This document shows, one piece after another, positions 4,444 to 27,339 of a stretch of DNA of 32,439 nucleotides. A model generated the notes under the pieces. That model ran no database searches, was not told the origin of the DNA, and worked only from the letters and a program-made list of their open reading frames with translations. The DNA lies in IMG/VR virus record IMGVR_UViG_3300021256_000007, positions 1 through 32,439 of that record; one strand, written 5' to 3'. Within the stretch, counting starts at the first letter, position 1. The number at the start of each line of letters is the position of its first letter. The DNA is from a virus (Duplodnaviria; Heunggongvirae; Uroviricota; Caudoviricetes). The position numbers and the translations under genes are program-made.

Positions 4444-4466
4444 ATGGATGTTTATAGGAGGTAAAC

Positions 4467-8120: not shown

Positions 8121-8141
8121 AAAGAGAGGACTGATAAGCCT

Positions 8142-8657: not shown

Positions 8658-8850
8658 TTTTGAAAGGAAAAACGTAAAAATTAAGTGAAAAGTTTTTAAA
8701 AGTTAAAAATCGATTTTTTTCATTTTTTCATAGAAAATGCGAATTTTTTGCGAAAATAAGTCAAAAAACAAGTCAAAAGTCACTTTTTTTTCAACTAATA
8801 CGTGAGAAAAATGCATTTTTGTATATAATAACCTGAAAAATTTTTGACTT
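8658..8850. other. very AT-rich intergenic region, candidate replication origin
   Basis: A/T tracts; AAGTCAAAA at 8758 and 8770 with an inverted copy TTTTGACTT at 8842; directly upstream of the replicase. Confidence 0.45.
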
Positions 8851-8891
8851 ATTGTCTTGTTCGCTATTTCTCCAGAAAGGAGGTTCGGTTT

Positions 8892-11800: not shown

Positions 11801-13121
11801 GACCAAGGATGAAGTTCCGATGCTCGGAAAGCAGTATTACCGCTGTACCATGATATCCGGCAAGAGCTGGTATAAGGGTTTCGATCCGGGAGAAGGTGGC
11901 TTTGTCTTTGCCAACTGGGGCATGTACGGATATGCCGAATGCTATGACTCAGCATCTCACCACCCTTCATCGCTCATCGCTGAAAACGGGTTTGGGCCTT
12001 ATACTGAGAACTTCAAGATGCTGCTGGATATTCGTCTGCACATTAAGCATAAGGACTACGACTGGGTTCGTTCGCTGTATAACGGCATTCTGGCTCCCTA
12101 TCTGACGTCTGATGAAGATGCAAAACAACTTAGCAAAGCACTGAAAATCGCTATAAACAGCGTATATGGCCTCACAGCGGCACACTTTACGAATCGTCTG
12201 AGGGATCCGAGAAACGACGACAACTGGGTGGCCAAGAGAGGCGCACTGTTCATGATCGATCTGATGCTCAAGGTAAAGGAAATGGGCTATCGAGTCATCC
12301 ATGTCAAGACTGATTCCATCAAGATCGCCGAGCCGGATGAGCGGGTCTATAATTTTGTTATGGATTACGGCAAAAAGTTCGGGTATACCTTCGAGATCGA
12401 GCATAAGTTCGAGAAGATCTGTCTTGTGAACAACGCAGTTTATATTTGCAAGTATACGGACGCGCCTGAGAACGGTAAAATGGCAGGGAAGTGGGAAGGT
12501 ACCGGAGACCAGTTCAAAGAAGCAAGTTCCCCGTACGAATTTAAAACATTGTTCAGCCATGACGAGATCAACTTTTGGGATCTGTGCGTAACACAGACGG
12601 TAAAGGTTGGTCTCGGTTTATATTTGGATCTGGACGAGAATCTGCCTTCTTCCGAGCTTTTGGAGAAGGAAGAGGACAAATTAGTGAAAAAGTGGCATAA
12701 GGTTCAGTTCGAGCTTTGCGACGAGAACGATAAGAAGCTTGTGGAAGGCTTTAATCCCGTTCTCACGGATATTCCGGATAAGAAACTCGCGCAGTACGCA
12801 AGCGACGAGTATCACAGGGATTATATTCGTCTCTGCGAAGTTCAGGAAGAGATCCGGAAATGCCATGATTACCACTTTGTCGGTAAAGCGGGACTGTTTT
12901 GTCCCATTAAACCCGGATGCGGCGGAGGCCGTCTGGTCCGGGAGAACAACGGTAAGTACGCTTATGCGGCTGGCTCCAAGGATTATCGCTGGCTGGAAGC
13001 GGAAACCGTCCGTGAACTGCACCTCGAAGACAAGATCGATCTTGGATATTTCGAGGGCCTTAAGAATGACGCAATCGCAACAATCTCGCAATTCGGCGAT
13101 TTTGAAGCGTTTGCCAAATAA
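8892..13121 (+). CDS. fused SF3-like helicase / primase-like domain / 3'-5' exonuclease / family-B-like DNA polymerase
   Basis: Walker A GAPGCGKGT; FVDFD and ELSKSGAGIH primase-like motifs; exonuclease motifs FDTE, GFNNLGYD and YCCND; polymerase motifs YDSASHHPS, KIAINSVYG and KTDS; probable start is ACG 8892 (track start is TTG 8844). Confidence 0.85.
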   Translation, partial: TDFVKAALRPPQKKGQPAEVYPKFITKQSKDLMIRGGDFYAIWDARNGRWSTRWDDVIDLIDEELERYKETVKDQYDVIKVAYMWDSDSGSIDKWRKYVTKQTSDNYYPLDETLVFENTTPKREDYSSKHVPYALEHGSIDNWNELVGTLYSPEERHKIEWAIGSVVSGDSRWIQKFFVFYGAPGCGKGTILEVIEKLFEGYCGHFEAAALGTNTSDFALESFKSNPIVAIDPDGQLSRIETNTRLNALVSHEVLTINEKFKSKYEMRIQTMLFIATNSPVKITDSKSGLLRRLIDISPTGNKIPNRRYNQLKKNIGFELGAIASHCLDVYNEDPHYYDDYTPLSMMSATNDFYNFMLDNYDAYKKEEGVKLADVWFQYRMYCDEAKVPYPYPMRIVKEELKNYFLTYKERGYLNGKQERNVYTGFRVEKFEEKTFNKKPDKSSEESWLQFNTTESILDKIGADWPAQYAYIKEDGSDRPSVAWDDCQTILKDLNTAELHYLRCPEQFCFVDFDKKDPKTGKKSLELNMKAASKWPPTYAELSKSGAGIHLTYIYTGDISKVLPIYENDVEIKFYTGKASLRRKLTRCNDIPIATISSGLPLRKENPKTVNEYTIEDQKHLLAAVRKALRKEISPFSTVCCVDYIGKVLNEAYESGMKYDLSEMKPQVLAFAAASHNHSLQCLDKAENFPYCSETESEWVPPEKEEKKIAFFDTEVFPNLFILVYKPVGHDCITLINPEPNEVLRVFQSYNMIGFNNLGYDNHICYARIRGDSIYELFTRSQNIINAPKGKNDWTINESKNLSYTDIFDFCSDKKGLKKWEIELQKKGVDIRHDEAGLPWDKPVPENKWKRVAEYCCNDVIATEQVFLANQSDFRAREILVELCNALRGPGSTVNDSTNTLTTKLIVGNEKTPQASFVKPDLSKLFPGYEYNPYGFPKERYMVVVDDMLPTCNPKLFEFYELDISGKYVKTKDEVPMLGKQYYRCTMISGKSWYKGFDPGEGGFVFANWGMYGYAECYDSASHHPSSLIAENGFGPYTENFKMLLDIRLHIKHKDYDWVRSLYNGILAPYLTSDEDAKQLSKALKIAINSVYGLTAAHFTNRLRDPRNDDNWVAKRGALFMIDLMLKVKEMGYRVIHVKTDSIKIAEPDERVYNFVMDYGKKFGYTFEIEHKFEKICLVNNAVYICKYTDAPENGKMAGKWEGTGDQFKEASSPYEFKTLFSHDEINFWDLCVTQTVKVGLGLYLDLDENLPSSELLEKEEDKLVKKWHKVQFELCDENDKKLVEGFNPVLTDIPDKKLAQYASDEYHRDYIRLCEVQEEIRKCHDYHFVGKAGLFCPIKPGCGGGRLVRENNGKYAYAAGSKDYRWLEAETVRELHLEDKIDLGYFEGLKNDAIATISQFGDFEAFAK

Positions 13122-13155
13122 ATTTATTTTTCAATTTTAGAAAGGAAAAAGTATT

Positions 13156-13698
13156 ATGCAGATCGTTGAAAGAAAGAGCCGTAGTTTTGTTATCGATGGT
13201 ATTGTTGATCGCGAGGTTCGATCCCGCAACTTTGGCGGTGAGGAGAAGAAGGACCGTGTAACGGGCCGCACTGTTAACAGCCCCGGCTATCGTAACTTCC
13301 TGCTTTTTGTGACGGAAGAGATCGCCGAAGAGCTGAAGGACCATGGTTGTGAGGTGAAGTATACCAAGGTGCAGGGTCCGAACGACGTTCCCATGCCCTA
13401 TGTGTCCATTACCGTGAGCTATTTTCTGAAGCCTGTGGAAGCTTGTATGATCTCCAACGGCGTTCCTACGCAGCTGGACGATGCGCACATCTTCCATCTG
13501 AACAACGTGGATATTCGCAACATGTGCCTTGAGCTTGAGCTCGGTAAGGAGAAGATCCACAATAATGGCGTGAAGTATATTCCGCTGTATGCACAGAAGA
13601 TCTGGGTCGAGGTCACGCCCGACTACTTTGCCGAGAAGTACGGCTATATGAATCAGGCTCCTGTTACGGCTCCCGGAACGGAGGAAGAGCCGTTCTGA
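13156..13698 (+). CDS. putative single-stranded DNA-binding protein
   Basis: beta-rich body; acidic/aromatic C-terminus EEEPF; located between the polymerase and helicase genes. Confidence 0.6.
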   Translation: MQIVERKSRSFVIDGIVDREVRSRNFGGEEKKDRVTGRTVNSPGYRNFLLFVTEEIAEELKDHGCEVKYTKVQGPNDVPMPYVSITVSYFLKPVEACMISNGVPTQLDDAHIFHLNNVDIRNMCLELELGKEKIHNNGVKYIPLYAQKIWVEVTPDYFAEKYGYMNQAPVTAPGTEEEPF

Positions 13699-13726
13699 TA
13701 TTTAGAGGTTGAAAGGGGAGTTTTTG

Positions 13727-14959
13727 GTGCAACCCGAATTCGATGAGGGACAGCTCAAAGCTCTCTCAAAACTTCGAAACGGAAATATACTTTGCGGTGG
13801 GGTCGGATCCGGTAAAAGCCGGACCGGCCTCGCTTATTATTTTTGCAGTGTATGTGGCGGACAGATCGACGGCAAGCGAAGAGGCCTTAAGAAGGATCTG
13901 GTTCCGATGCTCTGGCCAAAAGACCTTTATATTATTACAACGGCGAAAAAGAGGGACAAAGGCGAATGGGAAGAGGAACTGGAGCCGTTCGGCTTGAAAG
14001 TCGGAGAGGATGAGAAACCGAAGATCGTGGTGGACAGTTGGAATAACATCAAGAAATACGTGGATGTTACCGGCGCGTTCTTTCTGTTTGACGAACAGCG
14101 TGTCGTTGGCTACGGAAGCTGGTCAAAAGCGTTCATAAAGATTGCACGTTCCAACGGCTGGATATTCTTGTCGGCAACGCCGGGAGACTGTTGGATGGAC
14201 TATTTGTCGATTTTCATAGCGAACGGGTTCTACCGGAACAAAAGGGACTTTGAAAACCGGCATGTCATCTACAGCAGGTATACGAAATACCCGCAGGTCG
14301 ACCGCTATGTGGACGATTATATTCTGACGCGGCTTCGGGATTCTATCCTCGTGAACATTGAGTATGAGAAACCGACCGAACGTCATATGGATATTCGTCT
14401 GGTGAGTTATGACAGGGAAGCTTACAAAGCGCTGATGAAAGACCGGTGGAACATCTACGAAGACAAACCGATCGAGAATGTCAGTGAGCTTTGTTACCTG
14501 CTTCGAAAAACGGTGAATGCCGATCCGTCCCGAATCGAGATGGTTCTGCTGATCGCAAAGGAACGGCCGAGGCTCATCATCTTCTACAACTTCGATTACG
14601 AGCTGGATATTCTCCGAAATGCCGCATGGCCGGAAGGAACGGTCTGTCGGGAATGGAACGGTCATAAACATGAAGAAATACCGGATTCGGAACGCTGGGT
14701 ATATTTCGTAAACTACATGGGCGGTTCTGAAGGATGGAATTGCATTACAACAGATTCCATGCTGTTCTATTCCCAGAACTATTCCTATAAGGCGACCGAG
14801 CAGGCTATGGGCCGAATCGACCGTCGGAATACACCGTACAAAGATTTATATTACTACAGCTTTAAAACCTACGCGCCGATCGATGTCGCAATCGGTCGGG
14901 CACTGAAGAGAAAGAAGAATTTCAACGAGAGCATGTTTTTCCGTTCAAGATCCTCTTGA
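13727..14959 (+). CDS. superfamily 2 (SNF2/DEAD-like) helicase
   Basis: GGVGSGKS Walker A, FDEQ, LSATP, SEGWN and QAMGRIDR motifs; GTG 13727 behind AAGGGGAG. Confidence 0.9.
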   Translation: MQPEFDEGQLKALSKLRNGNILCGGVGSGKSRTGLAYYFCSVCGGQIDGKRRGLKKDLVPMLWPKDLYIITTAKKRDKGEWEEELEPFGLKVGEDEKPKIVVDSWNNIKKYVDVTGAFFLFDEQRVVGYGSWSKAFIKIARSNGWIFLSATPGDCWMDYLSIFIANGFYRNKRDFENRHVIYSRYTKYPQVDRYVDDYILTRLRDSILVNIEYEKPTERHMDIRLVSYDREAYKALMKDRWNIYEDKPIENVSELCYLLRKTVNADPSRIEMVLLIAKERPRLIIFYNFDYELDILRNAAWPEGTVCREWNGHKHEEIPDSERWVYFVNYMGGSEGWNCITTDSMLFYSQNYSYKATEQAMGRIDRRNTPYKDLYYYSFKTYAPIDVAIGRALKRKKNFNESMFFRSRSS

Positions 14960-14962
14960 CCG

Positions 14963-15030
14963 CTTAAAATTCGTAAAATTTACACCGACTATAGTAGGAG
15001 AGAGTAGATACTGCATTTTTTACTCTTTCT
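14963..15030 (+). promoter_or_regulatory. putative phage promoter motif, copy 3, followed by a hairpin
   Basis: CTTAAAATTCGTAAAATTTACACCGACTATAGT followed by a 10-bp stem (14997-15006/15021-15030). Confidence 0.6.
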
Positions 15031-15054
15031 AAGGGTTTTTTGAGGTGAAAAACA

Positions 15055-15345
15055 ATGCTTGAAAGTGAATTTCAGAGAAATTTGATCGGAGAGCTTCAGG
15101 AGATGTTTCCGGGAGCTCTTATCTATAAGAACGAAACAAAACAGGGTTTTCCGGATCTGACGGTGCTTTACGGGGAACACTGGGCGCTTCTGGAATGTAA
15201 AAAATCCGAGAATGCGTCGCACCAACCGAATCAGGATTACTATGTCGAACGAGCGGATCAAATGTCTTTCTCTCGATTTATCTATCCTGAAAACAAGCAG
15301 GAGGTATTGAATGAACTTCAATCGGCATTTCGAACTCGAAGGTAA
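15055..15345 (+). CDS. VRR-NUC-like PD-(D/E)XK endonuclease
   Basis: LESEFQ...GFPDL...LLECK...Q motif pattern; 96 aa. Confidence 0.8.
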   Translation: MLESEFQRNLIGELQEMFPGALIYKNETKQGFPDLTVLYGEHWALLECKKSENASHQPNQDYYVERADQMSFSRFIYPENKQEVLNELQSAFRTRR

Positions 15346-15883
15346 ACACGCCATACTAAGCCCGAGTAAACCCTACTGGTTGAACTACAATCAGGATCAG
15401 CTCAGAGCTTATATTCTCTCGCAGAACGCAGCCGCGCGAGGAACCAGACTTCATGATCTGGCGGCAAAACTGATTCAGGAGGGATTGAAGCTCAGAGGAT
15501 CTACGCAAACTCTGACAGCTTATGTGAATGACGCCATCGGTTACGGCATGACACCGGAAGTAGCACTGAAATATTCCGACACATGCTTCGGCCATACGGA
15601 TGCCATTGACTTCAGTCATGGTTTACTTAGAATTCACGATTTGAAAACGGGTACCGGTCCGGTGCACATGGAGCAGCTTGAAATTTACGCTGCTCTTTTT
15701 CTTTTGGAATATGAACGCGCCTTCGGCGTGAATCCTTTGAACACCAAGGTCAATCTTCGAATCTATCAGAACGATGATATTCAGGAATGGTCTCCGGACA
15801 AGGATCGAATGGAGGAACTAATTTGCACCATTAAAGAACGCGATGCCTGGACACAGGAAACGATGCGGGAGGTTGAAGGGTAA
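15311..15883 (+). CDS. PD-(D/E)XK (Cas4/RecB-like) exonuclease-family protein
   Basis: GTRLH...GHTDAI...IHDLKTG...QLEIY motifs. Confidence 0.75.
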   Translation: MNFNRHFELEGKHAILSPSKPYWLNYNQDQLRAYILSQNAAARGTRLHDLAAKLIQEGLKLRGSTQTLTAYVNDAIGYGMTPEVALKYSDTCFGHTDAIDFSHGLLRIHDLKTGTGPVHMEQLEIYAALFLLEYERAFGVNPLNTKVNLRIYQNDDIQEWSPDKDRMEELICTIKERDAWTQETMREVEG

Positions 15884-18855
15884 TGGACGGCTGGATATTC
15901 GAAGAAAAGAACGTCTTCGACGAAAGTACGGGACAGTATAAGAAAGAGTTTATTGCTCATTACGGTACGCCTCGTCATTCCGGGCGTTATCCCTGGGGTT
16001 CCGGTAAGAATCCGCAGAGAAATCGAAACTGGCTTCAGCGAGCGGACGATCTGGCTAAGCAGGGCCTGAGCGAAAAAGAGATCGCGCAAGCTTTCGGTCT
16101 CAGCACCGGTGACTACCGTGCCATTAAGAAAAACTTCAAGTATCAGGTGGCTATGGATAATCAGCGCCAGGCCATTAAATGGCGCGATGATGGTCATGCC
16201 AATACTTGGATAGCGGAAAGGCTCGGAGTTTCCGAAGGCACGGTCCGTAATCTTCTGGACCCGACCAAGAAACAGCGGGAAAATACAGTCATGAATATTG
16301 CGGATAATCTAGAAACCGTTTTGAAAGACAAACCGTTTCTGGACGTCGGTGTTGGCGTAAACCGTCAGTTGAACATCAGTGAGCCTCAGCTTCATGCCGC
16401 ACTTCTGGCATTACAGAACAAGGGATATAACGTTTATAATTATGATCTTCCTCAGGTGTCGAACCCGAAGCAGAAAACCAAGCTCAAGATATTATGCGAT
16501 GGCGATGTCAGCCTTCAGGAAGTAAAAGAGCACTTAGGTGAGGTCACGTCTCCGGACGGTTTATATTTCGAAAACTATGGAGAGACCGCTGTTACCAGAA
16601 AACCGATACCGAGCGTGGATTCCAAGAGGATTGCAATTAATTACAACACCGGAGAACCTGGCGGCGGTCAGGAAAAAGACGGTGTGATTGAGATTCGTCC
16701 GGGTGTGGAAGATCTGGCTCTAGGAAATCGGAACTACGCACAGGTTCGTATCGCGGTCGACGGAACCCACTACCTGAAAGGTATGGCCGTTTACGGGGAT
16801 CCTAGCAAAATGCCGGAAGGCGTGGATATTGTCTTCAATACCTCAAAACACGAAGGTACTGAAAAGATGGGTACCGGAGACAACACGGTTCTGAAACCGA
16901 TGAAAAATGATCCGCAGAATCCGTTTGGCGCTTCGTTCCGCCAGTGGGAATACCAGGATGCCAACGGCGAATCACATGTGTCTCCGATCAATATTGTAAA
17001 CAGCGATGAAGATTGGGATAAATGGCAGAAGAATCTGTCGTCTCAGTTTCTGTCCAAACAGATGCCGGCACTGGCAAAACGGCAGCTGGATATTCGCTAC
17101 AGCGAAATGAACGATGAGTTCAACGAGTACAAGTCGATCAACAATCCGACACTGAAACGCCAGATGCTGGAAGAGTTTGCCGACAGCTGCGATTCGGCGG
17201 CCGTTCATTTGAAAGCAGCGGCTCTGCCGCGTCAGGGTGCGTTCGCCATTCTTCCGGTTCCGAGTCTGAAAGATAATGAAGTGTACGCACCAATGTTCGA
17301 CAATGGGGAAGAAGTCATTCTGGTACGCCATCCTCATGCAGGAACATTTGAAATTCCGAAACTGATAGTAAACAACAACAATCAGGAAGGAAAAAATGTG
17401 ATTGGAACGCTGGCTCCGCATGCCATCGGAATTACGGCTGCCACGGCACAGCAGTTATCCGGCGCCGACTACGACGGTGATACTGTTCTGGTCATTCCGA
17501 CAAAAGGACAAAAATTAAAAACTGATGCGCCTCTTGACGAATTAAAAACGTTTAATCCGACAGAAAGGTATTCCCGTTCGCCGGATGATCCGATTCGCAC
17601 CGGAAAAGGTGACGGGGAAAAGAAAGGTGACGGTTTTAACAAAGGTCAGCAGATGGGCATGGCGTCTAACCTGATCACGGACATGACGATCAAAGGCGCC
17701 AGCATCGATGAAATTGAACGTGCTGTCAAACATTCCATGGTCGTCATTGACGCTGAAAAACACAACCTGGATTGGAAACAGTCGGAAATCGATAATGGAA
17801 TTGCTGAACTAAGAAATCGTTATCAGGATGGCGGAGGCGCTTCAACGCTGATCTCAAGAGCAAAAGGTGACGCCCGTATTCCGGAACGGAAAGAAGTCTA
17901 CGGCACGACCAAGATGACTGATGAGGAATACAAAGAGTATCAGGAAAGCGGCGGAAGAAAGAATTCGTTCAAGCTGACTCCGGATGAATATGAACGGTAT
18001 CAGCGCGGCGAAGTGATCTATAGGGATACAAATCGAAGCTATTCGAAAGACAAGAAGATCACGGATCCGAGCAAGATGACACCGGAAGAATTGGAACGTT
18101 ACAATTCTGGCAAATCTGTATACAGGAAAACCGGCAAAATTGAAGATGCGGTTACCAAAATTTCCAATATGGAAGCGGCTTTAACGACCGGAGAAAAAGA
18201 TGCGCACAGTATTTCCGCCGGGTATTACATTGAAGACATTTACGCTGATCATGCCAATCGTTTGAAAGCTCTCGGAAACGAAGCGAGAAAAGAAGCGAGA
18301 GCCACTGGACTTTTGCAAGAGATTCCTACTGCAAAGAAAGTATATGACGATGTCGTCGGAAAAGAAGGAACGCTGACAAAAAAGATCGCACTCGCCGAGT
18401 TGGAAGCTCCGAAAGAAAGACAGGCGCAAATGATTGCATCAAGTGTCATGCGGGCAACTATTCAGGCCCATCCGGAATTGAAAGATGACGACGATAAACG
18501 AAAGAAACTGGCATCCAAGGCACTGGAAAATGCACGCGATGCTGTAAATGGCGGAGAGCACAAGAAACGGTACCGGATTGAACTCACAGACCGTGAATGG
18601 GAAGCGATTCAGGCTGGCGCTATTTCGAACGAAAAATTCAAGACCGTCATTCGGTACTCCGATAAGGAGGAATTGAAGAAGCGTGCTACGCCGAGAGCAT
18701 CTACAGGCCTTGCTTCTTCGACACGTTCGAGGGCCAGACTGATGCTTAACGCCGGTTACGCACCGTCTACAGTTGCAAAGGAGCTCGGTATCTCGATCGA
18801 GTCGCTTAAGAAAGAATTCAATAACTTCAGCGGAATGACAGTAGGAGGCGATTAA
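15883..18855 (+). CDS. single-chain double-psi-beta-barrel RNA polymerase-like protein with HTH domains
   Basis: GADYDGD metal-binding motif (17461-17481) preceded by VRHP; HTH-like segments at the N- and C-termini. Confidence 0.75.
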   Translation: MDGWIFEEKNVFDESTGQYKKEFIAHYGTPRHSGRYPWGSGKNPQRNRNWLQRADDLAKQGLSEKEIAQAFGLSTGDYRAIKKNFKYQVAMDNQRQAIKWRDDGHANTWIAERLGVSEGTVRNLLDPTKKQRENTVMNIADNLETVLKDKPFLDVGVGVNRQLNISEPQLHAALLALQNKGYNVYNYDLPQVSNPKQKTKLKILCDGDVSLQEVKEHLGEVTSPDGLYFENYGETAVTRKPIPSVDSKRIAINYNTGEPGGGQEKDGVIEIRPGVEDLALGNRNYAQVRIAVDGTHYLKGMAVYGDPSKMPEGVDIVFNTSKHEGTEKMGTGDNTVLKPMKNDPQNPFGASFRQWEYQDANGESHVSPINIVNSDEDWDKWQKNLSSQFLSKQMPALAKRQLDIRYSEMNDEFNEYKSINNPTLKRQMLEEFADSCDSAAVHLKAAALPRQGAFAILPVPSLKDNEVYAPMFDNGEEVILVRHPHAGTFEIPKLIVNNNNQEGKNVIGTLAPHAIGITAATAQQLSGADYDGDTVLVIPTKGQKLKTDAPLDELKTFNPTERYSRSPDDPIRTGKGDGEKKGDGFNKGQQMGMASNLITDMTIKGASIDEIERAVKHSMVVIDAEKHNLDWKQSEIDNGIAELRNRYQDGGGASTLISRAKGDARIPERKEVYGTTKMTDEEYKEYQESGGRKNSFKLTPDEYERYQRGEVIYRDTNRSYSKDKKITDPSKMTPEELERYNSGKSVYRKTGKIEDAVTKISNMEAALTTGEKDAHSISAGYYIEDIYADHANRLKALGNEARKEARATGLLQEIPTAKKVYDDVVGKEGTLTKKIALAELEAPKERQAQMIASSVMRATIQAHPELKDDDDKRKKLASKALENARDAVNGGEHKKRYRIELTDREWEAIQAGAISNEKFKTVIRYSDKEELKKRATPRASTGLASSTRSRARLMLNAGYAPSTVAKELGISIESLKKEFNNFSGMTVGGD

Positions 18856-18857
18856 GA

Positions 18858-19124
18858 GTGGCAAGAACTATGATCACGACTACTGACAATAAATTCAATC
18901 CCTTTACACAGTATGATCGTTGGGCTGCCTATGACGAGAAAGAATGCGGTTATTATTCGGCCGCTTATCTGGCTCGGATCGCCGTTGTCTCGCCTGAATT
19001 TAGCCAAAAAGAAATGGATCAGGCAATTGAAGATGCTTGCGATGAGATCTGTAAAATGGATCTGCGGTTCATAAGTCCCGTCACGGGTAAAGAAGTCTGC
19101 TATGTGAAGGTTACTGAGCAGTAG
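18858..19124 (+). CDS. conserved hypothetical protein, last gene before the putative genome end
   Basis: TAGGAGG RBS; GTG start; NKFNPFTQYDRW segment. Confidence 0.75.
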   Translation: MARTMITTTDNKFNPFTQYDRWAAYDEKECGYYSAAYLARIAVVSPEFSQKEMDQAIEDACDEICKMDLRFISPVTGKEVCYVKVTEQ

Positions 19125-19386
19125 TCTTAGCTTTTAGTTTGTATTAGCCGATACTAGATAGCTTTTATGTGGATCAATGGGCATGAGTCTGCATACTTGC
19201 TGTCTGGTGTCGGCTTTTTTACAACGTTTATGGGCTTTGCTCGTGCTATTCGGTGTGGCACGGCCGTTTTGCCTGTGCTTTCGATAGGTTTCTATGCATA
19301 TAACATGAATATCATATAATTTTTGGCTAAATTCGATATAAAACACCCCGGGAGGGGGTCATTTTGGGGTCTAGGGGGTGCACAAT

Positions 19387-19398
19387 CGCGGCGGTCCT
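19387..19398. other. candidate cos (cohesive-end) site
   Basis: GC-rich CGCGGCGGTCCT in the only long gap between the replication and packaging genes; an HNH gene is nearby; resembles the CGCCGGCCT-type 3' overhangs recalled for related phages. Confidence 0.45.
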
Positions 19399-19442
19399 CA
19401 AAAAAGCTCCGGAGGCAATTTTTGATATTTAGTCCTAGGTTT

Positions 19443-19603
19443 TTCTAATGCTTTTAAAGTGGGTATGATGCTTCCTTTGCCAGTTTGCTCATGTCTGGCT
19501 CGTTTCCCCTCTCTGTCGTGGAATCAGGATTCTCCTTTCGTGATGTTTGCCTCCTATAAACTTCATAAAAACCCACATCATACCCACCTTAAAGGCATTA
19601 GAA
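19443..19603 (+). ncRNA. candidate structured antisense sRNA
   Basis: 28-bp inverted repeat (19443-19470/19576-19603) enclosing sequences complementary to the RBS and start regions of early genes. Confidence 0.6.
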
Positions 19604-19642
19604 GTTTACTTAAAGTCCGGCAGAAAGGAGATGAACTGATAT

Positions 19643-19996
19643 TTGGCTGCCAGAAAGTCTAGTAAAACTCAGAGCGATGTTTTGGATTCAGCACCTCCGC
19701 TTACTCCAGAAGAGTGGGAAAACCGCTTAATCGCAAAAAGTTTTCGAGCTGTTGAAGAGCGCATCGACAATGGTACCGCTACTGCTGCCGAATACGTTCA
19801 TTTTTTAAAAGCTGGTTCAGTAAAACAACGCGAAGAGATGGAAAAGCTTCGTGAAGAGAACGCTTTGCTTCGTGCAAAGACTTCGGCAATTGAATCTGAG
19901 AAAGATCGTGCCGTTTTCTATCGTGAAGTTATTGATGCTCTTCAATCGTACAGAACGGAGACTACTGATGAGCCATTTGATCCGTACGTATACTGA
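19643..19996 (+). CDS. conserved protein, possible terminase small subunit
   Basis: first gene after the putative cos; GAAAGGAG RBS; TTG start; C-terminal coiled coil; function inferred from position only. Confidence 0.5.
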   Translation: MAARKSSKTQSDVLDSAPPLTPEEWENRLIAKSFRAVEERIDNGTATAAEYVHFLKAGSVKQREEMEKLREENALLRAKTSAIESEKDRAVFYREVIDALQSYRTETTDEPFDPYVY

Positions 19997-20399
19997 ACTA
20001 ATTCAGATTCCGACGTTCATTGAGCGCTTTAGATATTTGAAGCTAAGAGGTGACGTCGGGCAGGAGACATTTGGTTGGGAACGGTATCTCAATCAGAAAC
20101 TTTATACTTCATATGAATGGCGTAGATTTCGTCGAAATATTATTCTTCGCGACAATGGCTGCGATCTTGGAGTCGATGGTCATGAGTACATAAATGATGA
20201 GCTTGTATTCATTCATCACATTAACCCATTAGATCCAAAAGATATTGCTGATCATACTGAGATGCTCATGGATCCAGAAAACGTTATCTCGTGCCGCTTT
20301 GACACTCACAACGCTATTCATTACGGCGATGAATCATTAATTATGCCGTTTGAGTTAACTTTAAGAAAACCGAATGATACATGTCCTTGGAAAAACTAA
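19968..20399 (+). CDS. HNH endonuclease, packaging-associated
   Basis: RDNGCD...IHHINP...NVISC...HNAIH; start moved to ATG 19968 behind GGAG. Confidence 0.8.
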   Translation: MSHLIRTYTELIQIPTFIERFRYLKLRGDVGQETFGWERYLNQKLYTSYEWRRFRRNIILRDNGCDLGVDGHEYINDELVFIHHINPLDPKDIADHTEMLMDPENVISCRFDTHNAIHYGDESLIMPFELTLRKPNDTCPWKN

Positions 20400-20408
20400 T
20401 AGGAGGTT

Positions 20409-20756
20409 TTGTTTATGGACGACTCTATTCTAGGAACAATAAGGAAAATGATCGGCCCGTCAGCCTCCTATGACGTGTTTGACACCGATCTGATTGTCAA
20501 CATTAATTCTGCTTTTTCGAGGCTTTGTCAGCTCGGTGTTGGCCCAAGTTCGCCTTTTAAGATCCAAAGCGATGAGCAAACGTGGTCTGACTTTATGGAC
20601 CCGGCGACAATGCCTGATGAAGTTAAGCAGTACGTTTATCTAAAAACCCGAATGATTTTCGACACTCCTGCAAGTTCTATCGTGGCAAATGCTTATAAAG
20701 AACAGATTGCCGAATTGGAATGGACTTTGAAGGAAGTTGCTCAGTTCGGGTATTAA
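20409..20756 (+). CDS. putative head-to-tail adaptor/connector
   Basis: 115-aa helical protein with SILGTIRKMIG and VKQYVYLKTRMIFD segments, as recalled for gp6/gp15-like connectors. Confidence 0.55.
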   Translation: MFMDDSILGTIRKMIGPSASYDVFDTDLIVNINSAFSRLCQLGVGPSSPFKIQSDEQTWSDFMDPATMPDEVKQYVYLKTRMIFDTPASSIVANAYKEQIAELEWTLKEVAQFGY

Positions 20757-20771
20757 TAGGAGGCGGTAATT

Positions 20772-21566
20772 ATGACCGTACCTGAAATACTATATCAGCG
20801 AGCACTTGATGAAGGCTTTACTATTGAAGCAGCATGCGCATTACTTGCTATGATTCAGGGTGAAAGTGCATTTCGCTACGACAATGCCGAAGATCGCATC
20901 AATCGTGTTGTCAGTGACGAAGAATACATTCGTCGAGCTGACGCAGGACTCATAACGTATAACGGCAGAAACTTCATTTACGATGAGGTCGGTTTCGGTT
21001 ATGCACAGTGGACTTTCTGGAGCCGTAAGAAAAAGCTTTTCGAGTATTGCAAGAACCGCGGAACTTCCGTAGCCGACCATGAATCTCAAAAGGAATTCAT
21101 TTTCGTTGAGATGCGAGAGGACTTTCCGGCTATCTGGAATATGTGTCGTACGTCCCATGACTTGAGTGCTTTAACTAAGAAACTGATCGATGTTTGGGAA
21201 AATTCTGCCGATCATCAGCGTGATATGAGCATTCGATATCCTTATGCGAAAGCGTGGTATGCGAAGTTCAGTAACTGGTACGAGCCGGCTGCTGAACAAA
21301 CGGCCCAAGATGTCGATGAAGAAGGCGTTCCGGTTGAAAAAACATGGCCGCCTCGTGTGATTCAAAATGGTTTGAACTGGACTGAAGTGTACTTGCTTCA
21401 GTCTTTACTTAAATGTAGAGGTTACAACGTTCTGGTTAACGGAATTTTCAGTGAAGAACTGACTGAAAAAGTGAAGTCCTATCAGTCGATGAATAAGCTG
21501 CTTCCGGATGGAATTGTTGGGCCTAAAACATGGAAGTCGCTACTTGGTCTTCCGGCGGATTATTGA
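20772..21566 (+). CDS. endolysin: phage-lysozyme-2-like domain plus peptidoglycan-binding domain
   Basis: ACALLAMIQGES (catalytic Glu) and GYAQWT; C-terminal VYLLQSLL...DGIVGPKTW. Confidence 0.85.
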   Translation: MTVPEILYQRALDEGFTIEAACALLAMIQGESAFRYDNAEDRINRVVSDEEYIRRADAGLITYNGRNFIYDEVGFGYAQWTFWSRKKKLFEYCKNRGTSVADHESQKEFIFVEMREDFPAIWNMCRTSHDLSALTKKLIDVWENSADHQRDMSIRYPYAKAWYAKFSNWYEPAAEQTAQDVDEEGVPVEKTWPPRVIQNGLNWTEVYLLQSLLKCRGYNVLVNGIFSEELTEKVKSYQSMNKLLPDGIVGPKTWKSLLGLPADY

Positions 21567-21572
21567 TTCAAA

Positions 21573-21956
21573 ATGGCTTTTGTACCTTACAATCCCAATC
21601 CTGCCGGACGCTACGTGGGCGATTGCACGATAAGAGCTATATGTAAATTGACGGATCAGGATTGGGATTCTGTTTATGCAGCAACCACTTTTGAAGGTTT
21701 TCTTCGGAAGGATATGCCATCTGGAAATTCTACATGGGGCGCTTATCTCGATCGTCTCGGGTATGTCCGGCGGGGTTTACCTGATACCTGTCCGTTTTGT
21801 TACACGGTTAAGGAATTTTGCCGAGACTATCCAGTTGGGAGATATTTGTTAGCATTGGATCAGCATGTCGTAGCAGTCGTCGATGGCAACTATTATGATA
21901 CATGGGATTCCGGAAACGAGATTCCGTTTTATTATTGGAAGAAAGGAGAAAACTGA
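21573..21956 (+). CDS. hypothetical protein, possible papain-like Cys peptidase
   Basis: GDCTIRA, QHVVAV and YDTWDS give a candidate Cys-His-Asp triad. Confidence 0.6.
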   Translation: MAFVPYNPNPAGRYVGDCTIRAICKLTDQDWDSVYAATTFEGFLRKDMPSGNSTWGAYLDRLGYVRRGLPDTCPFCYTVKEFCRDYPVGRYLLALDQHVVAVVDGNYYDTWDSGNEIPFYYWKKGEN

Positions 21957-21959
21957 GTT

Positions 21960-22397
21960 ATGGCAGATAACATGTTTGGGCCGACTTTGCTTCCGGCGAC
22001 ACCCGTCGGACCGATTAGACCCAACCCGGTTAATCCGGCGAATCTAGCGATGAATCAGCAGGCGCAGGCTATTCCTTCGCAGCCTCAGACTAATGTTATC
22101 TATGTCCACGGTATGCAGGAGGTTCTAGAGCATCCTGCTGGCCCTAACGAGCATTTGTATTTTCCTGAAATGGACGCTCGTGTAATTTGGGTTCGTGATA
22201 CGGACTCAAAGGGACAGATTAAAAATCCGCTTACTAAACTGAGCTATACGGCAGAAGAAGTCGCGTTCGGTCCGGAAGCGAATTTTGTGACGAAGCAGGA
22301 GTTTCAGAAATTGTTCGACATTGTTCTTTCGACAAATGGCAATGTCAACAAACTTATGAAAGAACTTGGAGGTAGCTCTGATGAATCCTCTGTATAA
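21960..22397 (+). CDS. hypothetical protein with a P/Q/N-rich N-terminus
   Basis: AAAGGAG RBS. Confidence 0.75.
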   Translation: MADNMFGPTLLPATPVGPIRPNPVNPANLAMNQQAQAIPSQPQTNVIYVHGMQEVLEHPAGPNEHLYFPEMDARVIWVRDTDSKGQIKNPLTKLSYTAEEVAFGPEANFVTKQEFQKLFDIVLSTNGNVNKLMKELGGSSDESSV

Positions 22398-22599
22398 ATC
22401 TTTTCAGGAAAAGCAAGCGGCGAACAGGCCTCCTGCTAATCTGAATGAGATGCTTCAGAATTTTGCCAGTCAGTATGTTCCGCAAGGGATGAGCGCTGAA
22501 CAGATGGTACGTCAATTGGTCCAGAGCGGACGAATGACACAAGATCAGTTCAGTCAGTTTGCTTCCGTTGCAGATGCATGGACGGGTAAGAAGCGTTAA
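22381..22599 (+). CDS. small Gln-rich helical protein (72 aa)
   Basis: GGAGG 8 nt before ATG 22381. Confidence 0.75.
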   Translation: MNPLYKSFQEKQAANRPPANLNEMLQNFASQYVPQGMSAEQMVRQLVQSGRMTQDQFSQFASVADAWTGKKR

Positions 22600-22610
22600 G
22601 ATTCAAAATG

Positions 22611-22647
22611 GCCTGAGAGATGCTTGACAGTTTCTCTCAGGCTTTTT
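22611..22647 (+). terminator. intrinsic terminator
   Basis: gcctgagaga/tctctcaggc 10-bp stem followed by TTTTT. Confidence 0.8.
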
Positions 22648-22821
22648 AATAAATTGGTTTTCTCTCTTTATATTTAGTTCCGCCTTTGAATGTATTGTGC
22701 CGGTAAGGACCCTAACAAAAGCCTTCATAATCGGAGGCTATTTACCGGATATTCTTCTGCATTTCCGATTGCGCATAAGGAAAGCGGTTGAATAAATATA
22801 TTCATTAGGGGGAATAAGAAG

Positions 22822-23643
22822 ATGTCTTATTCTGAAAATGGTGGAACTCAGTTTACTATGCCTGTGGCGCCCTATGGTGGTGGTTATGGCAACGATGGCT
22901 TCGGTTTCGGCGGTAACGGTGCCTGGTGGCTGATCATTCTGCTTCTGTTCGCGAATAATGGTTGGGGCAATGGCTTCGGCTTTGGCGGTGGTGGCGGTGT
23001 GATGCCCTGGATGCTGAATAATAGTACGAATGCCGATGTTCAGCGTGGCTTTGATCAGTCTGCTATCATGGGGACTCTGAACGGAATTAACAGCACGGTT
23101 AGCAATGGCTTTGCCAATGCTGAGATCTCTCGTTGCAATGCTCAGGCGAATGTTCTTCAGACTCTCAACACCAATCAGGCTGCTACTCTGCAGAGTATGA
23201 ACAGTTTGGCGATGGGTCTTCAGAACTGCTGCTGCGAGAATCGTGCCGGTCTTGCCGATCTGAAGTATACGGTTGCTACTGAGAATTGCGCGGATCGTAA
23301 CGCTCTTAGCGAAGGCCTTACCTCTATGATGATGGCCAATAATACGAACACGCAGAACCTGATGAATACTGTGAACAGTGGTATTCAGACGGTTATGGAC
23401 AAGATTTGCGCTCTGGAACTGGCTGGCAAGGATCAGCAGATTGCTGCTCTTACTGCTCAGCTTAACGAGGCGAATCGTCGTGCTTCTCAGAACGATCAGA
23501 CTGCTCAGATTCTTGCCGGTCAGCGTGCTCTGGCTAACGAGGTTGAGCAATACGTGATGCCCACTCCGCGTCCTGCGTGGATTGTGCAGAATCCGAGTTG
23601 CTGCAATCAGTCCTCCACTTGCGGTTGCGGTTGCGCCGCATAA
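22822..23643 (+). CDS. Gly/Asn-rich membrane-associated protein with Cys clusters
   Basis: GNGAWWLIILLLF hydrophobic segment; CCCENR motif; coiled coil; C-terminal CCNQSSTCGCGCAA. Confidence 0.85.
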   Translation: MSYSENGGTQFTMPVAPYGGGYGNDGFGFGGNGAWWLIILLLFANNGWGNGFGFGGGGGVMPWMLNNSTNADVQRGFDQSAIMGTLNGINSTVSNGFANAEISRCNAQANVLQTLNTNQAATLQSMNSLAMGLQNCCCENRAGLADLKYTVATENCADRNALSEGLTSMMMANNTNTQNLMNTVNSGIQTVMDKICALELAGKDQQIAALTAQLNEANRRASQNDQTAQILAGQRALANEVEQYVMPTPRPAWIVQNPSCCNQSSTCGCGCAA

Positions 23644-23652
23644 GGAGGTGGC

Positions 23653-24099
23653 GTGATGGCTGAATGGACTAGCGTGGCCGAACAGACGGTCAATCCTGGT
23701 GAGTCCATTGTCTTCACTGAAGCTTCGGAGCCTTGCTACTGTGGACTCATTCTGCACCGTGAAGACAGCGGTGCGTTTTTAATGAAGGGTATCGACGATA
23801 ATGTTTGCAGATGTGGCCGCAGAAGTCGTGTAGTACGCTATACGGCTGCGTTCGGTGCCAATATCGCGATTCCCGAGGGCGAAACCGTCGGTCCTATTTC
23901 CGTCGCCTTCGCTCTTGATGGTAACACTCTAGCCGGAACAAACATGACGGTTACTCCCGCGGCCGTTGAAGAATTCTTTAACGTGTCTCGTGAAACCGGC
24001 GTTCCGATCTGGAGAGGTTGCTGCCAGACACTCTCGGTTCGTAATACCAGCACTATTCCTATTCTGGTGCAGGGCGCGAACCTGCTGATTACGAAGTGA
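23653..24099 (+). CDS. beta-sandwich protein, possibly BclA-CTD/C1q-like
   Basis: AAGGAGG RBS; alternating beta-strand pattern; several Cys. Confidence 0.75.
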   Translation: MMAEWTSVAEQTVNPGESIVFTEASEPCYCGLILHREDSGAFLMKGIDDNVCRCGRRSRVVRYTAAFGANIAIPEGETVGPISVAFALDGNTLAGTNMTVTPAAVEEFFNVSRETGVPIWRGCCQTLSVRNTSTIPILVQGANLLITK

Positions 24100-24112
24100 G
24101 GAGGATTTCAAA

Positions 24113-24682
24113 ATGGAAGTTGAATCCATGAAACACGGAAAGGCAACCGTAGAAAAGTGCCTTGAAGAACTGTTTAAGAAGTCCGACCTCACCCCTGCCG
24201 AAACGAAGGCTGCGCTGGATGGTATGAATCTTCGCGATCTGTTAACTTGCGAGATTGAAGATTGCAAGATGAAAGAGCGGGAGAAAGAGGACATGGAGTA
24301 TTCTGAACGCGGATATTCTGGTCATGACACTCCTTACCGCCAGTATCATATCACGTCTTACGGGCGTCCTATGCGTATGCCTCGTTCTGACGGAAGTTAC
24401 CGTCCGATGAGGATTTCTTACGGCGGACGGACGATGGACGACTATTCCGGCGACTATGGCGTTCAGGGCTGGTACCGTAGCGGAGACGGTATGTCGAACT
24501 GTGGTCCTGAGCCTTATTATTATTCCGACGGTCGCTATCGCGATGACCACCGGTACAGCCGTCATAGTATCGGTGACAGGGTCGTTGAGAAGCTTGAACA
24601 TATGATGGACACTACCAGTTCTGAGTATGAAAAAGAGGAACTGCATAAGTTCATTCGTATGGTTCGGAGTGCTGCTGACTAA
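24113..24682 (+). CDS. protein with a Tyr/Arg/Gly/Ser-rich low-complexity middle region
   Basis: GAGG RBS; helical N- and C-termini. Confidence 0.8.
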   Translation: MEVESMKHGKATVEKCLEELFKKSDLTPAETKAALDGMNLRDLLTCEIEDCKMKEREKEDMEYSERGYSGHDTPYRQYHITSYGRPMRMPRSDGSYRPMRISYGGRTMDDYSGDYGVQGWYRSGDGMSNCGPEPYYYSDGRYRDDHRYSRHSIGDRVVEKLEHMMDTTSSEYEKEELHKFIRMVRSAAD

Positions 24683-24694
24683 GTTTAAGATTAA

Positions 24695-24735
24695 GGGGAG
24701 AGCTCTTGAGTCCTTCAAGGGCTCTCTTCGATTTA
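24695..24735 (+). terminator. terminator-like hairpin with a weak U-tail
   Basis: 15-bp stem ggggagagctcttga/tcaagggctctcttc. Confidence 0.6.
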
Positions 24736-24769
24736 AAAAATACGAATAGGAAAGTGAGGGTTCAGACAT

Positions 24770-25579
24770 ATGCCTGATAACACAATTGACTATCTGGCCC
24801 ATCACGGTTTGATCGGGCAGAAAGACGATTTAGTAAGCAATATTGAATTAGACGATGACTTTCTGGAACATTATCAGATTAAGGGTGCTAAGCATGGCAT
24901 CCGCAGATTTCAGAATTATGATGGCTCTTTAACTCCGGCAGGACGCGAACGCTATGGCATTGGACCTGCAAGAGAAGCGAAAAAAGAAGCCGCTGCAAGT
25001 GCTGCAAAAAATATTAATAAAAAAGCAAAAGCAGTTTTAAACACTTATAAAGAAAAACGGGCCAAAGCAAAAGAAGCGAGCGCCGCTAAAGCTCATGAAA
25101 TGCTAAAAGAATATGCTCGTAGGCATCCTAAGTATTTACCGATGCTTAGTAAAACAATGACTAAAGACGAGATTAATAAGATTGTCGACGATATAAATTT
25201 TGATCAGAAATTACGAGATATTCGACAGCGCGAACTTGATGAAGGAACTCGGCGTATACAGCGTGCAGCAAATACCATTGGTGCAATTTCAAATTTAATG
25301 AATAATAGCAAGAATCTTTATAACAATTCGGTTGAAATTTATAATTCGATTAAAGGAACTAATAAACGTAAAATCGGCGAAAAGAAAGAAGAAGATCGTA
25401 GCGAAATTACAAAGATTATTCGTAGTGGTTCGGCCGATGATGTTTATAAGAATATCTCAAGGATGACGTCTAGCGAACTTGGAGATGCTATTAAACGGTT
25501 AAACGCCGAAGAGGTGCTAAAAAATCAATACGGCGTTAAGGTCGATGATAAAACTAAAAACAAAGATGACAAAACGTAA
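24770..25579 (+). CDS. HHG-motif (DUF7211-like) basic helical protein
   Basis: YLAHHGLIGQK, then HYQIKGAKHGIRRFQNYDGSLTPAGRERY. Confidence 0.75.
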   Translation: MPDNTIDYLAHHGLIGQKDDLVSNIELDDDFLEHYQIKGAKHGIRRFQNYDGSLTPAGRERYGIGPAREAKKEAAASAAKNINKKAKAVLNTYKEKRAKAKEASAAKAHEMLKEYARRHPKYLPMLSKTMTKDEINKIVDDINFDQKLRDIRQRELDEGTRRIQRAANTIGAISNLMNNSKNLYNNSVEIYNSIKGTNKRKIGEKKEEDRSEITKIIRSGSADDVYKNISRMTSSELGDAIKRLNAEEVLKNQYGVKVDDKTKNKDDKT

Positions 25580-25593
25580 AGGATGAAATCAAA

Positions 25594-27339
25594 ATGGCGT
25601 TATCGAATACGGCTGTGCCGAAATACTACGGCGCTTTTCGTGACGCCGTTTTACGTGGAGAAATTGTAGTTAATCGTGAAGTGTCCATGCAGATGACGCT
25701 TATCGATAAACTTATTGAGGATCCTAGGTTTTACTATGACGATACGGTTCTGGAAGGCTGGATTCGTTTCTGTGAAAACGAACTGACGCTTACGGATGGC
25801 GGGGATCTTACGCTGCTTGATTCGTTTAAGCTTTGGGCCGAAGATATTTACTGTTGGTTTTACTTCGTTGAGCGGAGCGTTTGGGTTCCGAACCTCAGAG
25901 GCAGCGGCGGACATTTCGAAATCCGAAAGATTAAGAAACGTCTTCGCAATAAGCAATATTTGATCGTTGGCCGTGGTGCAGCGAAGTCTGTTTACTGCAC
26001 TTGCGTTCAAGGTTACGGCCTCATTATGGACGAAGAGGCGACCGATCAGATTGTAACAGCGCCAACCATACGTCAGTCCGAGGAAACTTTGCTTCCGTTA
26101 AAGATTGCTATAGCTCGATCTAAAGGGCCGGTCCTTAAATTCATGACAGAAGGTTCGCTTCAGAATACTACCGGTAATAAAGCAGATCGCGTCAAAATAG
26201 CTCCGACAAAGAAAGGCATTGAGAATTTCGTTACGAACTCCATTCTTGAAAGCCGTCCAATGCGTATCGATAAACTTCAGGGTGCTCGCTGTAAATACGC
26301 CACGGTTGATGAGTGGCTTTCTGGCGATGTTAAGGAAGATGTTGTAGGTGCTTTGGAACAAGGTGCTGCGAAAGTCGATAATTGGCTTATTGTAGCAACA
26401 AGTTCCGAAGGTACTGTACGTAACGGCCCTGGCGATACTATAAAGATGGAACTTATGGAGATTCTGAAAGGGGATTACTATAATCCTCACGTTTCCATTT
26501 GGTGGTATAAGCTTGATGACATTAAGGAACTAAACAATCCTACGATGTGGATCAAGGCCAACCCGAATCTTGGCGCAACCGTAAGTTATGAGACCTATAA
26601 GATCGAGCTTGACCGAGCTGAAAAGAATCCGGCAGTTCGCAATGATATTCTTGCAAAGCGTTTCGGTATCCCGATGGAGGGTTACACTTACTTCTTTACT
26701 TATGAAGAGACAAAGCCGCATCGGAGACAGTATTTCGATGGCATGATGTGCTCGCTTGGTGTCGATCTCTCGCAAGGCGACGATTTTTGTGCGTTTACAT
26801 TTTTGTTTCCTTTGCCAAGCGGAGGCTTCGGCATAAAAGCGCGTAGCTATATTACGTCCTACACCTTCCAGAAATTACCAAGAGCGTTGCGTTCCGAGTA
26901 CGAAAAGTTTATTCGAGAAGAGAGTTTAGTTGTTCTGGAATCGACTGTGCTAGACCTCGGTGAAGTCTATGAGGATCTCTATCATTTCATTGATGCAAAG
27001 CACTACAATGTCCAGTGCCTTGGTTACGACCCGTATAATGCTCCAGTGTTTATTAATCGTTGGGAAATTGATAACGGCCCTTATGGTATCGAAAAAGTAC
27101 CTCAGGGCGTTAAGACTGAATCGGTTCCTCTTGGAGAATTAAAGATTATGGCCGAACGCAGAGAATTATATTTCGACGAACAGATTATGTCGTTTTGTAT
27201 GGGTAACTGCATTACTCAGGAAGATACGAATGGCAACCGGAAACTTTTAAAGAAACGTCGTCAGGAAAAGATCGATAACGTTTCGGCTCTGATGGATGCG
27301 TATGTCGCTTATAAGATGAATCGAGACATGTTTGAATAA
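25594..27339 (+). CDS. terL: terminase large subunit
   Basis: Walker A GRGAAKS; Walker B ATVDEW; nuclease motifs GVDLSQGDD and KIDNVSALMD. Confidence 0.92.
   Translation: MALSNTAVPKYYGAFRDAVLRGEIVVNREVSMQMTLIDKLIEDPRFYYDDTVLEGWIRFCENELTLTDGGDLTLLDSFKLWAEDIYCWFYFVERSVWVPNLRGSGGHFEIRKIKKRLRNKQYLIVGRGAAKSVYCTCVQGYGLIMDEEATDQIVTAPTIRQSEETLLPLKIAIARSKGPVLKFMTEGSLQNTTGNKADRVKIAPTKKGIENFVTNSILESRPMRIDKLQGARCKYATVDEWLSGDVKEDVVGALEQGAAKVDNWLIVATSSEGTVRNGPGDTIKMELMEILKGDYYNPHVSIWWYKLDDIKELNNPTMWIKANPNLGATVSYETYKIELDRAEKNPAVRNDILAKRFGIPMEGYTYFFTYEETKPHRRQYFDGMMCSLGVDLSQGDDFCAFTFLFPLPSGGFGIKARSYITSYTFQKLPRALRSEYEKFIREESLVVLESTVLDLGEVYEDLYHFIDAKHYNVQCLGYDPYNAPVFINRWEIDNGPYGIEKVPQGVKTESVPLGELKIMAERRELYFDEQIMSFCMGNCITQEDTNGNRKLLKKRRQEKIDNVSALMDAYVAYKMNRDMFE

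Follow-up and report, generated by a model that had tools for sequence, protein, structure and literature searches.

The c4 antisense RNA of phages P1 and P7 is a structured phage RNA that presents more than one exposed loop to an mRNA leader, including its ribosome-binding site (RBS), and represses translation in trans. RNase P excises it as an RNA of about 77 nt, and its single target operon, icd-ant, adjoins its own gene. In S. aureus, hairpins 7, 13 and 14 of RNAIII, together with RsaE, are host-encoded regulators of multiple targets that carry C-rich loops (UCCC) directed against the Shine-Dalgarno (SD) sequence, and the duplexes that they form are RNase III substrates. Trans-acting type I antitoxin RNAs, such as those of the IstR-1/tisB and SR4/bsrG pairs, block the ribosome site of small hydrophobic membrane peptides. 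Long RNase III stems, including the T7 R sites and those of the rRNA precursor, the lambda N leader and sib, surround rRNA or no functional sequence at all. To our knowledge, very few phage-encoded trans-acting RNAs have been described, with hardly any from phages that infect anaerobic gut Firmicutes.

Here these systems are compared with an element at 19443-19603 in a phage genome from IMG/VR. The window, meaning the whole stretch of DNA that was analysed (32,439 nt), is the first 32.4 kb of a 96,439-bp record. A first reading of the letters, here called the sequence-only reading, had proposed that a late phage RNA made from this locus pairs with the ribosome sites of several early genes. Its coordinates all proved correct on re-examination.

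Genomic context of the element

Nearly all genes of the window's phage lie on the plus strand, and the 127-bp terminal repeat of the record is an assembly overlap. Positions 1-19124 hold non-late genes. Here DUF6353/phrog_2152 paralogues form a module with small ORFs at 1.2-5 kb, accompanied by a helicase, a giant replicase ORF and, at 15883-18855, a YonO-like, single-chain RNA polymerase. From 19643 on, the genes encode a 117-aa phrog_4259 protein, an HNH endonuclease, a connector protein, an endolysin and the large terminase. The first of these, directly downstream of the element, has the SD GAAAGGAGA and a TTG start (19623-19645, plus strand); its 117-aa product, for which searches of Pfam and PDB gave no match, is a possible small terminase subunit as judged by position only.

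Relatives of the phage were recovered from rumen and human-gut metagenomes and from MAGs of Oscillospiraceae, Ruminococcus and Eubacterium, and the hosts are therefore Clostridia. Versions of the element are present in many rumen and gut Clostridia phages, and a search among GenBank phages for similar DNA found none. Other repeats were also noted in the window. A 27-nt inverted repeat with 93% complementarity (I2, 715-741 with 22453-22479) joins an early-region site to the 22.4-kb region and matches in length the pair behind the original finding, and a perfect 40-bp direct repeat (D10, 367-406 and 739-778) flanks the gene at 414-773.

A conserved plus-strand RNA structure

The element consists of a 28-bp stem that closes a 105-nt interior carrying three pairing modules. 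The 5' arm (19443-19470) and 3' arm (19576-19603) form inverted repeat I1, with 93% complementarity on the plus strand. Compensatory changes were found at 15 of the 28 pairs, 96.4% of cells are paired across 26 relatives, and a U.G wobble in the stem is conserved in 24 of the 26 sequences. At 28 bp, with 96% pairing across the 26 relatives, the double-stranded stretch is long enough for an RNase III site (at least about 20 bp).

Within the interior, hairpin 1 (19479-19499, plus strand) has the GCCAG/CTGGC stem that the sequence-only reading had described, and all five of its pairs covary. Its loop, UUUGCUCAUGU, complements AUGAGCAAA and is thus an anti-start-codon (anti-AUG) loop. The second module, GGAUUCUCCUUUC (19527-19539, plus strand), is single-stranded and anti-SD; close relatives share its core UCUCCUUUC without variation, and no other form is as common in the family as a whole. 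Hairpin 3 (19540-19566, plus strand) presents CCUCCUA (19550-19556) in its loop in the minimum-free-energy fold, and its stem covaries among close relatives (GTTTA/TAAAC, GTAAT/ATTAC, TGTAAA/TTTACA).

The plus strand of the element folds with z = -7.9. A covariance model was used to align 26 relatives, and 27 of the 42 pairs showed double changes, with 93.9% of cells paired compared to about 40% when the partner was slid; none of 500 shuffles matched the observed covariation. Among 63 distinct relatives, a closing stem of 24-45 bp was found upstream of the same gene family, with arms whose sequences are wholly different between lineages and which remain complementary. Non-Watson-Crick positions in these 63 stems were scored symmetrically for the two strands, an A.C on the plus strand being a would-be G.U on the minus strand, and amounted to 153 G.U on the plus strand, 51 A.C and 41 other. 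The covarying pairs and the wobble excess therefore establish a real RNA structure on the plus strand.

A cmscan of 18800-20000 against Rfam 15, on both strands and at E<=1, gave no match, including to C4, phi29 pRNA and known phage sRNAs, which agrees with the original remark that the element is not of a described family. Four metatranscriptome runs of the source study, compared with 16000-26000, yielded a few contigs of 150-350 nt at 16.6-18.5 and 21.8-24.1 kb; these contigs were absent over 18.7-21.7 kb, at a depth of only 2-4x that makes the comparison uninformative either way. No RNA run is listed as containing the element. Another stem-closed module, beside tRNA-Met at about 85 kb, was considered as a candidate and set aside as unrelated, being purine-rich and devoid of an anti-SD sequence.

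Pairing with initiation regions of the window's phage

The longest pairing of the sequence-only reading joined 19543-19571 to the leader, SD and AUG of gene 4467 (4440-4468, plus strand). The unbroken 19-nt helix with one G.U was recovered, but the overall figure of 27 of 29 nt was not, the ungapped register giving 24 Watson-Crick pairs and one G.U of 29. This 29-nt match has a BLAST E of 1e-4 within its own genome, and the predicted target ranks third by helix. Hairpin 3 pairs with 4447-4468 and also with 3756-3768, the SD and AUG of mini-gene 3766 (37-aa transmembrane; plus strand), a weaker predicted target for which the 12-nt pairing proposed earlier was confirmed.

The single-stranded module at 19527-19539 is, as had been claimed, a perfect 13-nt complement of 2702-2714 and a perfect 12-nt complement of 1191-1202, and its 9-nt match at 3953-3961 is present. 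The site at 1191-1202 (plus strand) is the SD of gene 1208, which encodes a 62-aa transmembrane peptide and is a weaker predicted target directly downstream of a promoter-like motif. In the anti-AUG loop, 19482-19492 is the perfect complement of 2718-2728, and with one G.U the pairing grows to 14 nt. The initiation region of gene 2718, a DUF6353 membrane protein gene (2702-2728, plus strand), is therefore predicted to be a bipartite target, with 13 nt at the SD and 14 nt at the AUG, and it has the second-best cofold ddG in the genome (-29.5 kcal/mol). Both gene 2718 and gene 3970 start with ATGAGCAAA. The SD and start ATGAGCAAAATG of gene 3970 (3953-3981, plus strand) form a further weaker predicted target; 12 nt pair without gaps at its start, and the approximately 19 nt described earlier are reached only with bulges.

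The strongest matches in this phage fall beyond the window, where the sequence-only reading could not see them: in genome numbering they are 76608-76629 (22 nt), 76390-76410, 83149-83165 and 63588-63601. The anti-SD module with its flanks (19524-19546) pairs with 76608-76629 in a 22-nt duplex with two G.U, and this site is the initiation region of gene 76632, which encodes a 354-aa membrane protein. It was noted that the product of this top target (genome 76632-77696; L161:333-1397; 354 aa) has two transmembrane segments and a long, coiled, alanine/glutamate-rich tail that looks SPFH/band-7-like by eye. In a related genome (G002) it has an orthologue with 58% identity, which is not among the predicted targets of that genome.

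A promoter-like motif, ATTCGTAAAA..CTATAGT, was also observed at 1129-1151, 3887-3909 and 14969-14991, with another copy at genome position 71739 and a degenerate copy at 19331. The copies at 1129-1151 and 3887-3909 directly precede the predicted targets 1208 and 3970. In a further relative (G020), CTATAGT stands directly before a targeted leader, ACGAAAGGAGAATC, a placement that suggests very short 5' untranslated regions which the RNA could cover entirely.

A shared membrane-protein module among the predicted targets

We ranked all initiation regions of each genome by cofold ddG. The loop interior was treated as a free molecule because loop-target pairing in the whole element is a pseudoknot. 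In all five genomes of this type with enough sequence (that of the window's phage, G001, G002, G015 and G020), the best or second-best predicted target falls in one syntenic module, defined by tblastn and comprising a homologue of gene 1399 of the window's phage, DUF6353 paralogues, small transmembrane peptides and an acidic MSK.. protein. A module gene ranks first in G001, G002, G015 and G020 and second in the window's phage, where gene 2718 follows gene 76632 (-30.3 kcal/mol). The module makes up roughly 5-10% of the candidate initiation regions, and the coincidence has a P of order 1e-5 if the genomes are independent; the five are related and not fully so, and the true significance is therefore weaker than this value.

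In the window's phage the module spans 1208-4877 and includes genes 1208, 2718, 3766, 3970 and 4467, and in four genomes it lies 15-17 kb upstream of the element. As a separate observation, the module is conserved in five related phages with two or three DUF6353 (PF19880) paralogues and transmembrane peptides of 37-87 aa. G002 (88.7 kb, 99% complete) has a homologue of the 19527-19539 module that pairs over 29 nt with the SD, spacer and AUG of a gene for a 47-aa hydrophobic peptide. In G015, a 54.7-kb contig of an Oscillospiraceae MAG, a duplex of 27 nt (26 Watson-Crick pairs and one G.U) lies in the initiation region of a transmembrane gene (76 aa) found 15.7 kb upstream and ends at the AUG. 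The anti-SD and anti-AUG modules of G001 pair in two parts with gene 7993, and ATGAGCAAA matches only twice in its 46.9 kb, at the starts of module genes 7993 and 10616. The complete 85-kb genome G020 has its best helix at an 87-aa transmembrane gene that also starts with ATGAGCAAA, and its best ddG at a DUF6353 orthologue.

From one genome to another the individual targets are not orthologues, and homologues of gene 4467 were sought in four relatives and not found. The matched sequences differ between G002, G015 and the set formed by the window's phage, G001 and G020. This indicates co-variation of the loops with each phage's own targets rather than mere inheritance, which is the outcome that the sequence-only reading had asked of its relatives. 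The top predicted targets include transmembrane peptides of 47 aa in G002, 76 aa in G015 and 87 aa in G020; in the window's phage, 1208 and 3766 are weaker predicted targets of this sort. Larger DUF6353 proteins and other genes are predicted targets as well, and the strongest single matches of the window's phage (76.4-76.6 kb) fall outside the module.

Cis pairing and distant members of the family

The element could instead be a purely cis-acting 5' leader of the packaging/late operon, its stem serving as an RNase III site, a 5' stabiliser or both, its anti-SD stretch folding back to hold translation of the first downstream ORF low, and its distant matches being by-products of SD complementarity. 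Such a role would fit its place, always directly upstream of the same gene family and 20-60 nt from the SD, and over 9 nt the invariant UCUCCUUUC is perfectly complementary to GAAAGGAGA, which is conserved downstream. However, the adjacent initiation region is a poor partner in the window's group, ranking 97th of 234 in the window's phage, 212th of 217 in G002, 30th of 105 in G015, 27th of 195 in G020 and 11th of 99 in G001. Scores of own against unrelated cis helices, taken across 63 elements, gave no general signal (mean z 0.2; 0.0 for the window's phage). A cis leader also leaves unexplained the anti-AUG loop, the CCUCC hairpin and the gene-specific duplexes of 22-29 nt that gather in one module.

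We found more in favour of cis pairing among distant family members. The group B elements of two complete genomes (G005, G006) showed no long-range complementarity; their loop instead gives a bipartite pairing with a leader ORF of 19-20 aa, at its SD and early codons, and translation of this ORF is coupled to that of the downstream gene. Pairing of the loop with the initiation region of this leader mini-ORF had a mean z of -2.45 relative to shuffles. It was also observed in L054-L070 (for example, L064:183-300) that the leader ORF ends in ..YIGGDG, that its stop overlaps the start of the downstream packaging gene, and that the loop complements both its SD and a CTCACC in its early codons. Sporadic members (L087, L015 and L041) carry complements of 14-20 nt to the adjacent ribosome site, and group C elements from three MAGs had no long complementary site in their contigs. 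A preference of the anti-SD stretch for the downstream SD is thus predicted in group B, compared to the window's phage, in which only the 9-nt core pairs.

Weighing both sides, we consider it unlikely that the element of the window is a cis leader and nothing else. Because distant members have no long-range complementarity, trans action cannot in turn explain the whole family. The only family-wide constants are the long stem and one anti-SD stretch, which suggests that the family may originally have served to control the packaging operon in cis, to process it, or both. The trans-targeting modules may have been added in the window's lineage.

Position at the packaged genome end

The contigs of 32 relatives all have their first base 12-13 nt before a conserved CCGGRGG; in the window this start corresponds to 19396/19397. 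As these are independent contigs with the same start, the position is the physical left end (cos) of the packaged DNA, with cleavage between 19396 and 19397. The element, which begins 45 nt inside this end, precedes the packaging/late operon. Between cos and the element lies a conserved box, CTCCGGAGG..TTTGATATTT (19407-19430, plus strand), which is kept in nearly all relatives and is a candidate terminase-binding site or (late) promoter. A second copy of it was sought across the 96-kb genome and none was found, so the box is single-copy. A scan for sigma-70 promoters and intrinsic terminators around the element returned none except a terminator-like hairpin on the minus strand at 19345-19359. 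In the right-end flank of cos (19343-19395), a conserved GC hairpin (ACCCCGGGAGGGGGT) is followed by a run rich in T or A, then by another G-run and by ATCGCGGCGGT; the flank is terminator-like on both strands and conserved across relatives.

The distance of 45 nt from the cleavage position in dozens of phages, and a neighbourhood of putative small terminase, HNH endonuclease and large terminase genes, would suit an accessory cos site acting as DNA, in which the 28-bp inverted repeat binds the small terminase subunit or bends the DNA and the complementarity to ribosome sites is irrelevant. However, the arms diverge and stay complementary with a 3:1 preference for plus-strand G.U over A.C, which is a signature of RNA, and the inner 5-bp hairpin covaries at every pair. 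Moreover, two relatives (G008, G009) keep the phrog_4259-like gene, and G009 the cos box too, with neither having the long stem; the box as such persists in relatives without the element. It follows that the element does not belong to the cos machinery and is best described as an accessory cassette, and we regard a DNA-level role as very improbable.

Controls for Shine-Dalgarno content

Any RNA that contains CCUCC matches many ribosome sites, and three controls were used for this reason: shuffles that preserve the SD core, swapped loops or genomes, and minus strands. In the window's phage, the best helix scored 51 compared to 37.6±3.4 in SD-core-preserving shuffles, of which 1 in 150 reached it, and the sum of the top three helices was 141 compared to 106±5.9 (0 of 150). 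G002 gave a best helix of 62 compared to 37.8±2.7 (0 of 150 SD-preserving shuffles), and for G007 the top-3 helix sum had P = 0.007 in the same test. The helix score of G001, which is half a genome, was not significant against SD-preserving shuffles. Loops of other phages on the genome of the window's phage, and its loop on other genomes, scored at most 43, compared to 51 and 62 for the own combinations of the window's phage and G002; minus-strand controls scored at most 42.

Pairing with the phage's own initiation regions thus goes beyond the SD core in comparison with all three controls, and the element is a structured RNA whose loops are complementary to SD and AUG beyond SD content, the mark of the anti-RBS antisense class. 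The idea therefore survives the comparison with SD-preserving shuffles on which the sequence-only reading had made it depend. The wobble bias of the loop-target duplexes was less clear, with 13 G.U and 9 A.C under symmetric scoring, a result that was inconsistent and leaned to A.C in G007.

A compositional artefact, in which any pyrimidine stretch with CCUCC matches SD regions and the longer matches arise by chance, would be in keeping with the 34 loop-complementary 11-mers on the plus strand (4 on the minus), which fall mostly at GAAAGGAGAAT-type ribosome sites. It would also fit duplexfold energies, which fail to separate own from swapped genomes: RNAduplex runs of the whole loop against 45-nt initiation regions gave no such separation. 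This method is too permissive and was therefore replaced by ungapped-helix scores and cofold ddG. The three controls, the pairing of gene-specific spacers and start codons, and the recurrence of top matches in the same module of five genomes all speak against an artefact, which was already disfavoured and which we hold to be very improbable. Least probable of all is a minus-strand product, either a small peptide or a GGA/AGGAGG-rich RNA that soaks up ribosomes or a CsrA-like protein: that strand has a chain of SD-like motifs, some followed by ATG, and folds equally well (z = -7.1), but the wobble asymmetry and the covariance model (179 bits on the plus strand, 56 on the minus) favour the plus strand, essentially all phage genes lie there, and the minus-strand ORFs are not conserved in frame, the ATG-AGC-AAA one shifting frame between close relatives and therefore not coding.

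Discussion

We put at about even chances the proposal that 19443-19603 encodes a plus-strand non-coding RNA of about 160 nt whose loops silence phage genes by base pairing. Under this proposal the RNA would be made together with the late operon or immediately ahead of it, its ends shielded by the long stem, and a possible RNase III cut would free a stable RNA of about 130-160 nt. A few phage mRNAs would then be bound by the loops at their leader, SD and start codon, which would block binding of the 30S ribosome; loop-target duplexes of 20-29 bp may be cut as well, as further RNase III substrates. The main targets would be the DUF6353 and small transmembrane module (1208, 2718, 3766, 3970, 4467), along with short-leader genes at 63-83 kb. 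The analysis establishes the structure, its strand, conservation and position, and a complementarity beyond the SD that covaries with the targets of each phage, so that the sequence-only reading is in large part upheld. Transcription, its timing, processing by RNase III and repression are what we infer, as are the labels "late" and "switch" attached to the element.

A wider reading can be offered tentatively, and we think it somewhat doubtful as a whole. The element would represent a widespread, undescribed family of RNAs encoded at the genome end of gut and rumen Clostridia phages, each a stem-closed cassette released by RNase III with interchangeable modules that co-evolve with the membrane/DUF6353 module, silence it in the manner of an antitoxin and so time the membrane-active genes, and its simpler relatives would throttle the first packaging gene in cis.

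Roughly 10,000 candidate structured RNAs have been catalogued in IMG/VR, among them unnamed candidates with a consistent place upstream of terminase genes (PMC10690425). The present element could be among these terminase-upstream candidates, for which no function, target or anti-SD feature was described (PMC10690425). The analysis adds a structured RNA family in dozens of uncultured rumen and human-gut phages, with concrete predictions on its mechanism (anti-SD and anti-AUG pairing) and on its targets (the DUF6353 and small transmembrane module). It thereby gives a first functional handle on this uncharacterised module, and it fixes the cos position for a large phage group. If confirmed, this design of a closed stem with several modules would offer a natural template for programmable silencers of translation in Gram-positive hosts.

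Relationship to known systems

Among the systems compared, c4 resembles the element as a structured phage RNA with several exposed anti-RBS loops, trans action being predicted here. The element has as its own the 28-bp closing stem, three modules, remote targets, Clostridia phages as carriers and a place adjoining cos, and it has no match in Rfam. RNAIII and RsaE share with it the C-rich anti-SD loops set against SD and start codon, and several targets, which are predicted in the present case. It differs from them in being phage-encoded, in its unrelated sequence, in using CCUCC/UCUCCUUUC, the sequence of the 16S 3' tail, and in its long enclosing stem.

The likeness to type I antitoxins lies in the targets, since several of the top predicted ones are transmembrane peptides of 37-87 aa. 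In contrast to those pairs, the targets are neither adjacent nor overlapping and lie 2.7-17 kb or more away, and the larger DUF6353 proteins and other genes are also predicted targets. The closing stem is like known RNase III stems in being long and near-perfect dsRNA with conserved internal non-Watson-Crick positions, located between transcription units. Taken together, these comparisons of sequence and predicted structure indicate that the element most likely represents a new family of phage antisense regulators, outside the families compared here and with a known kind of action.
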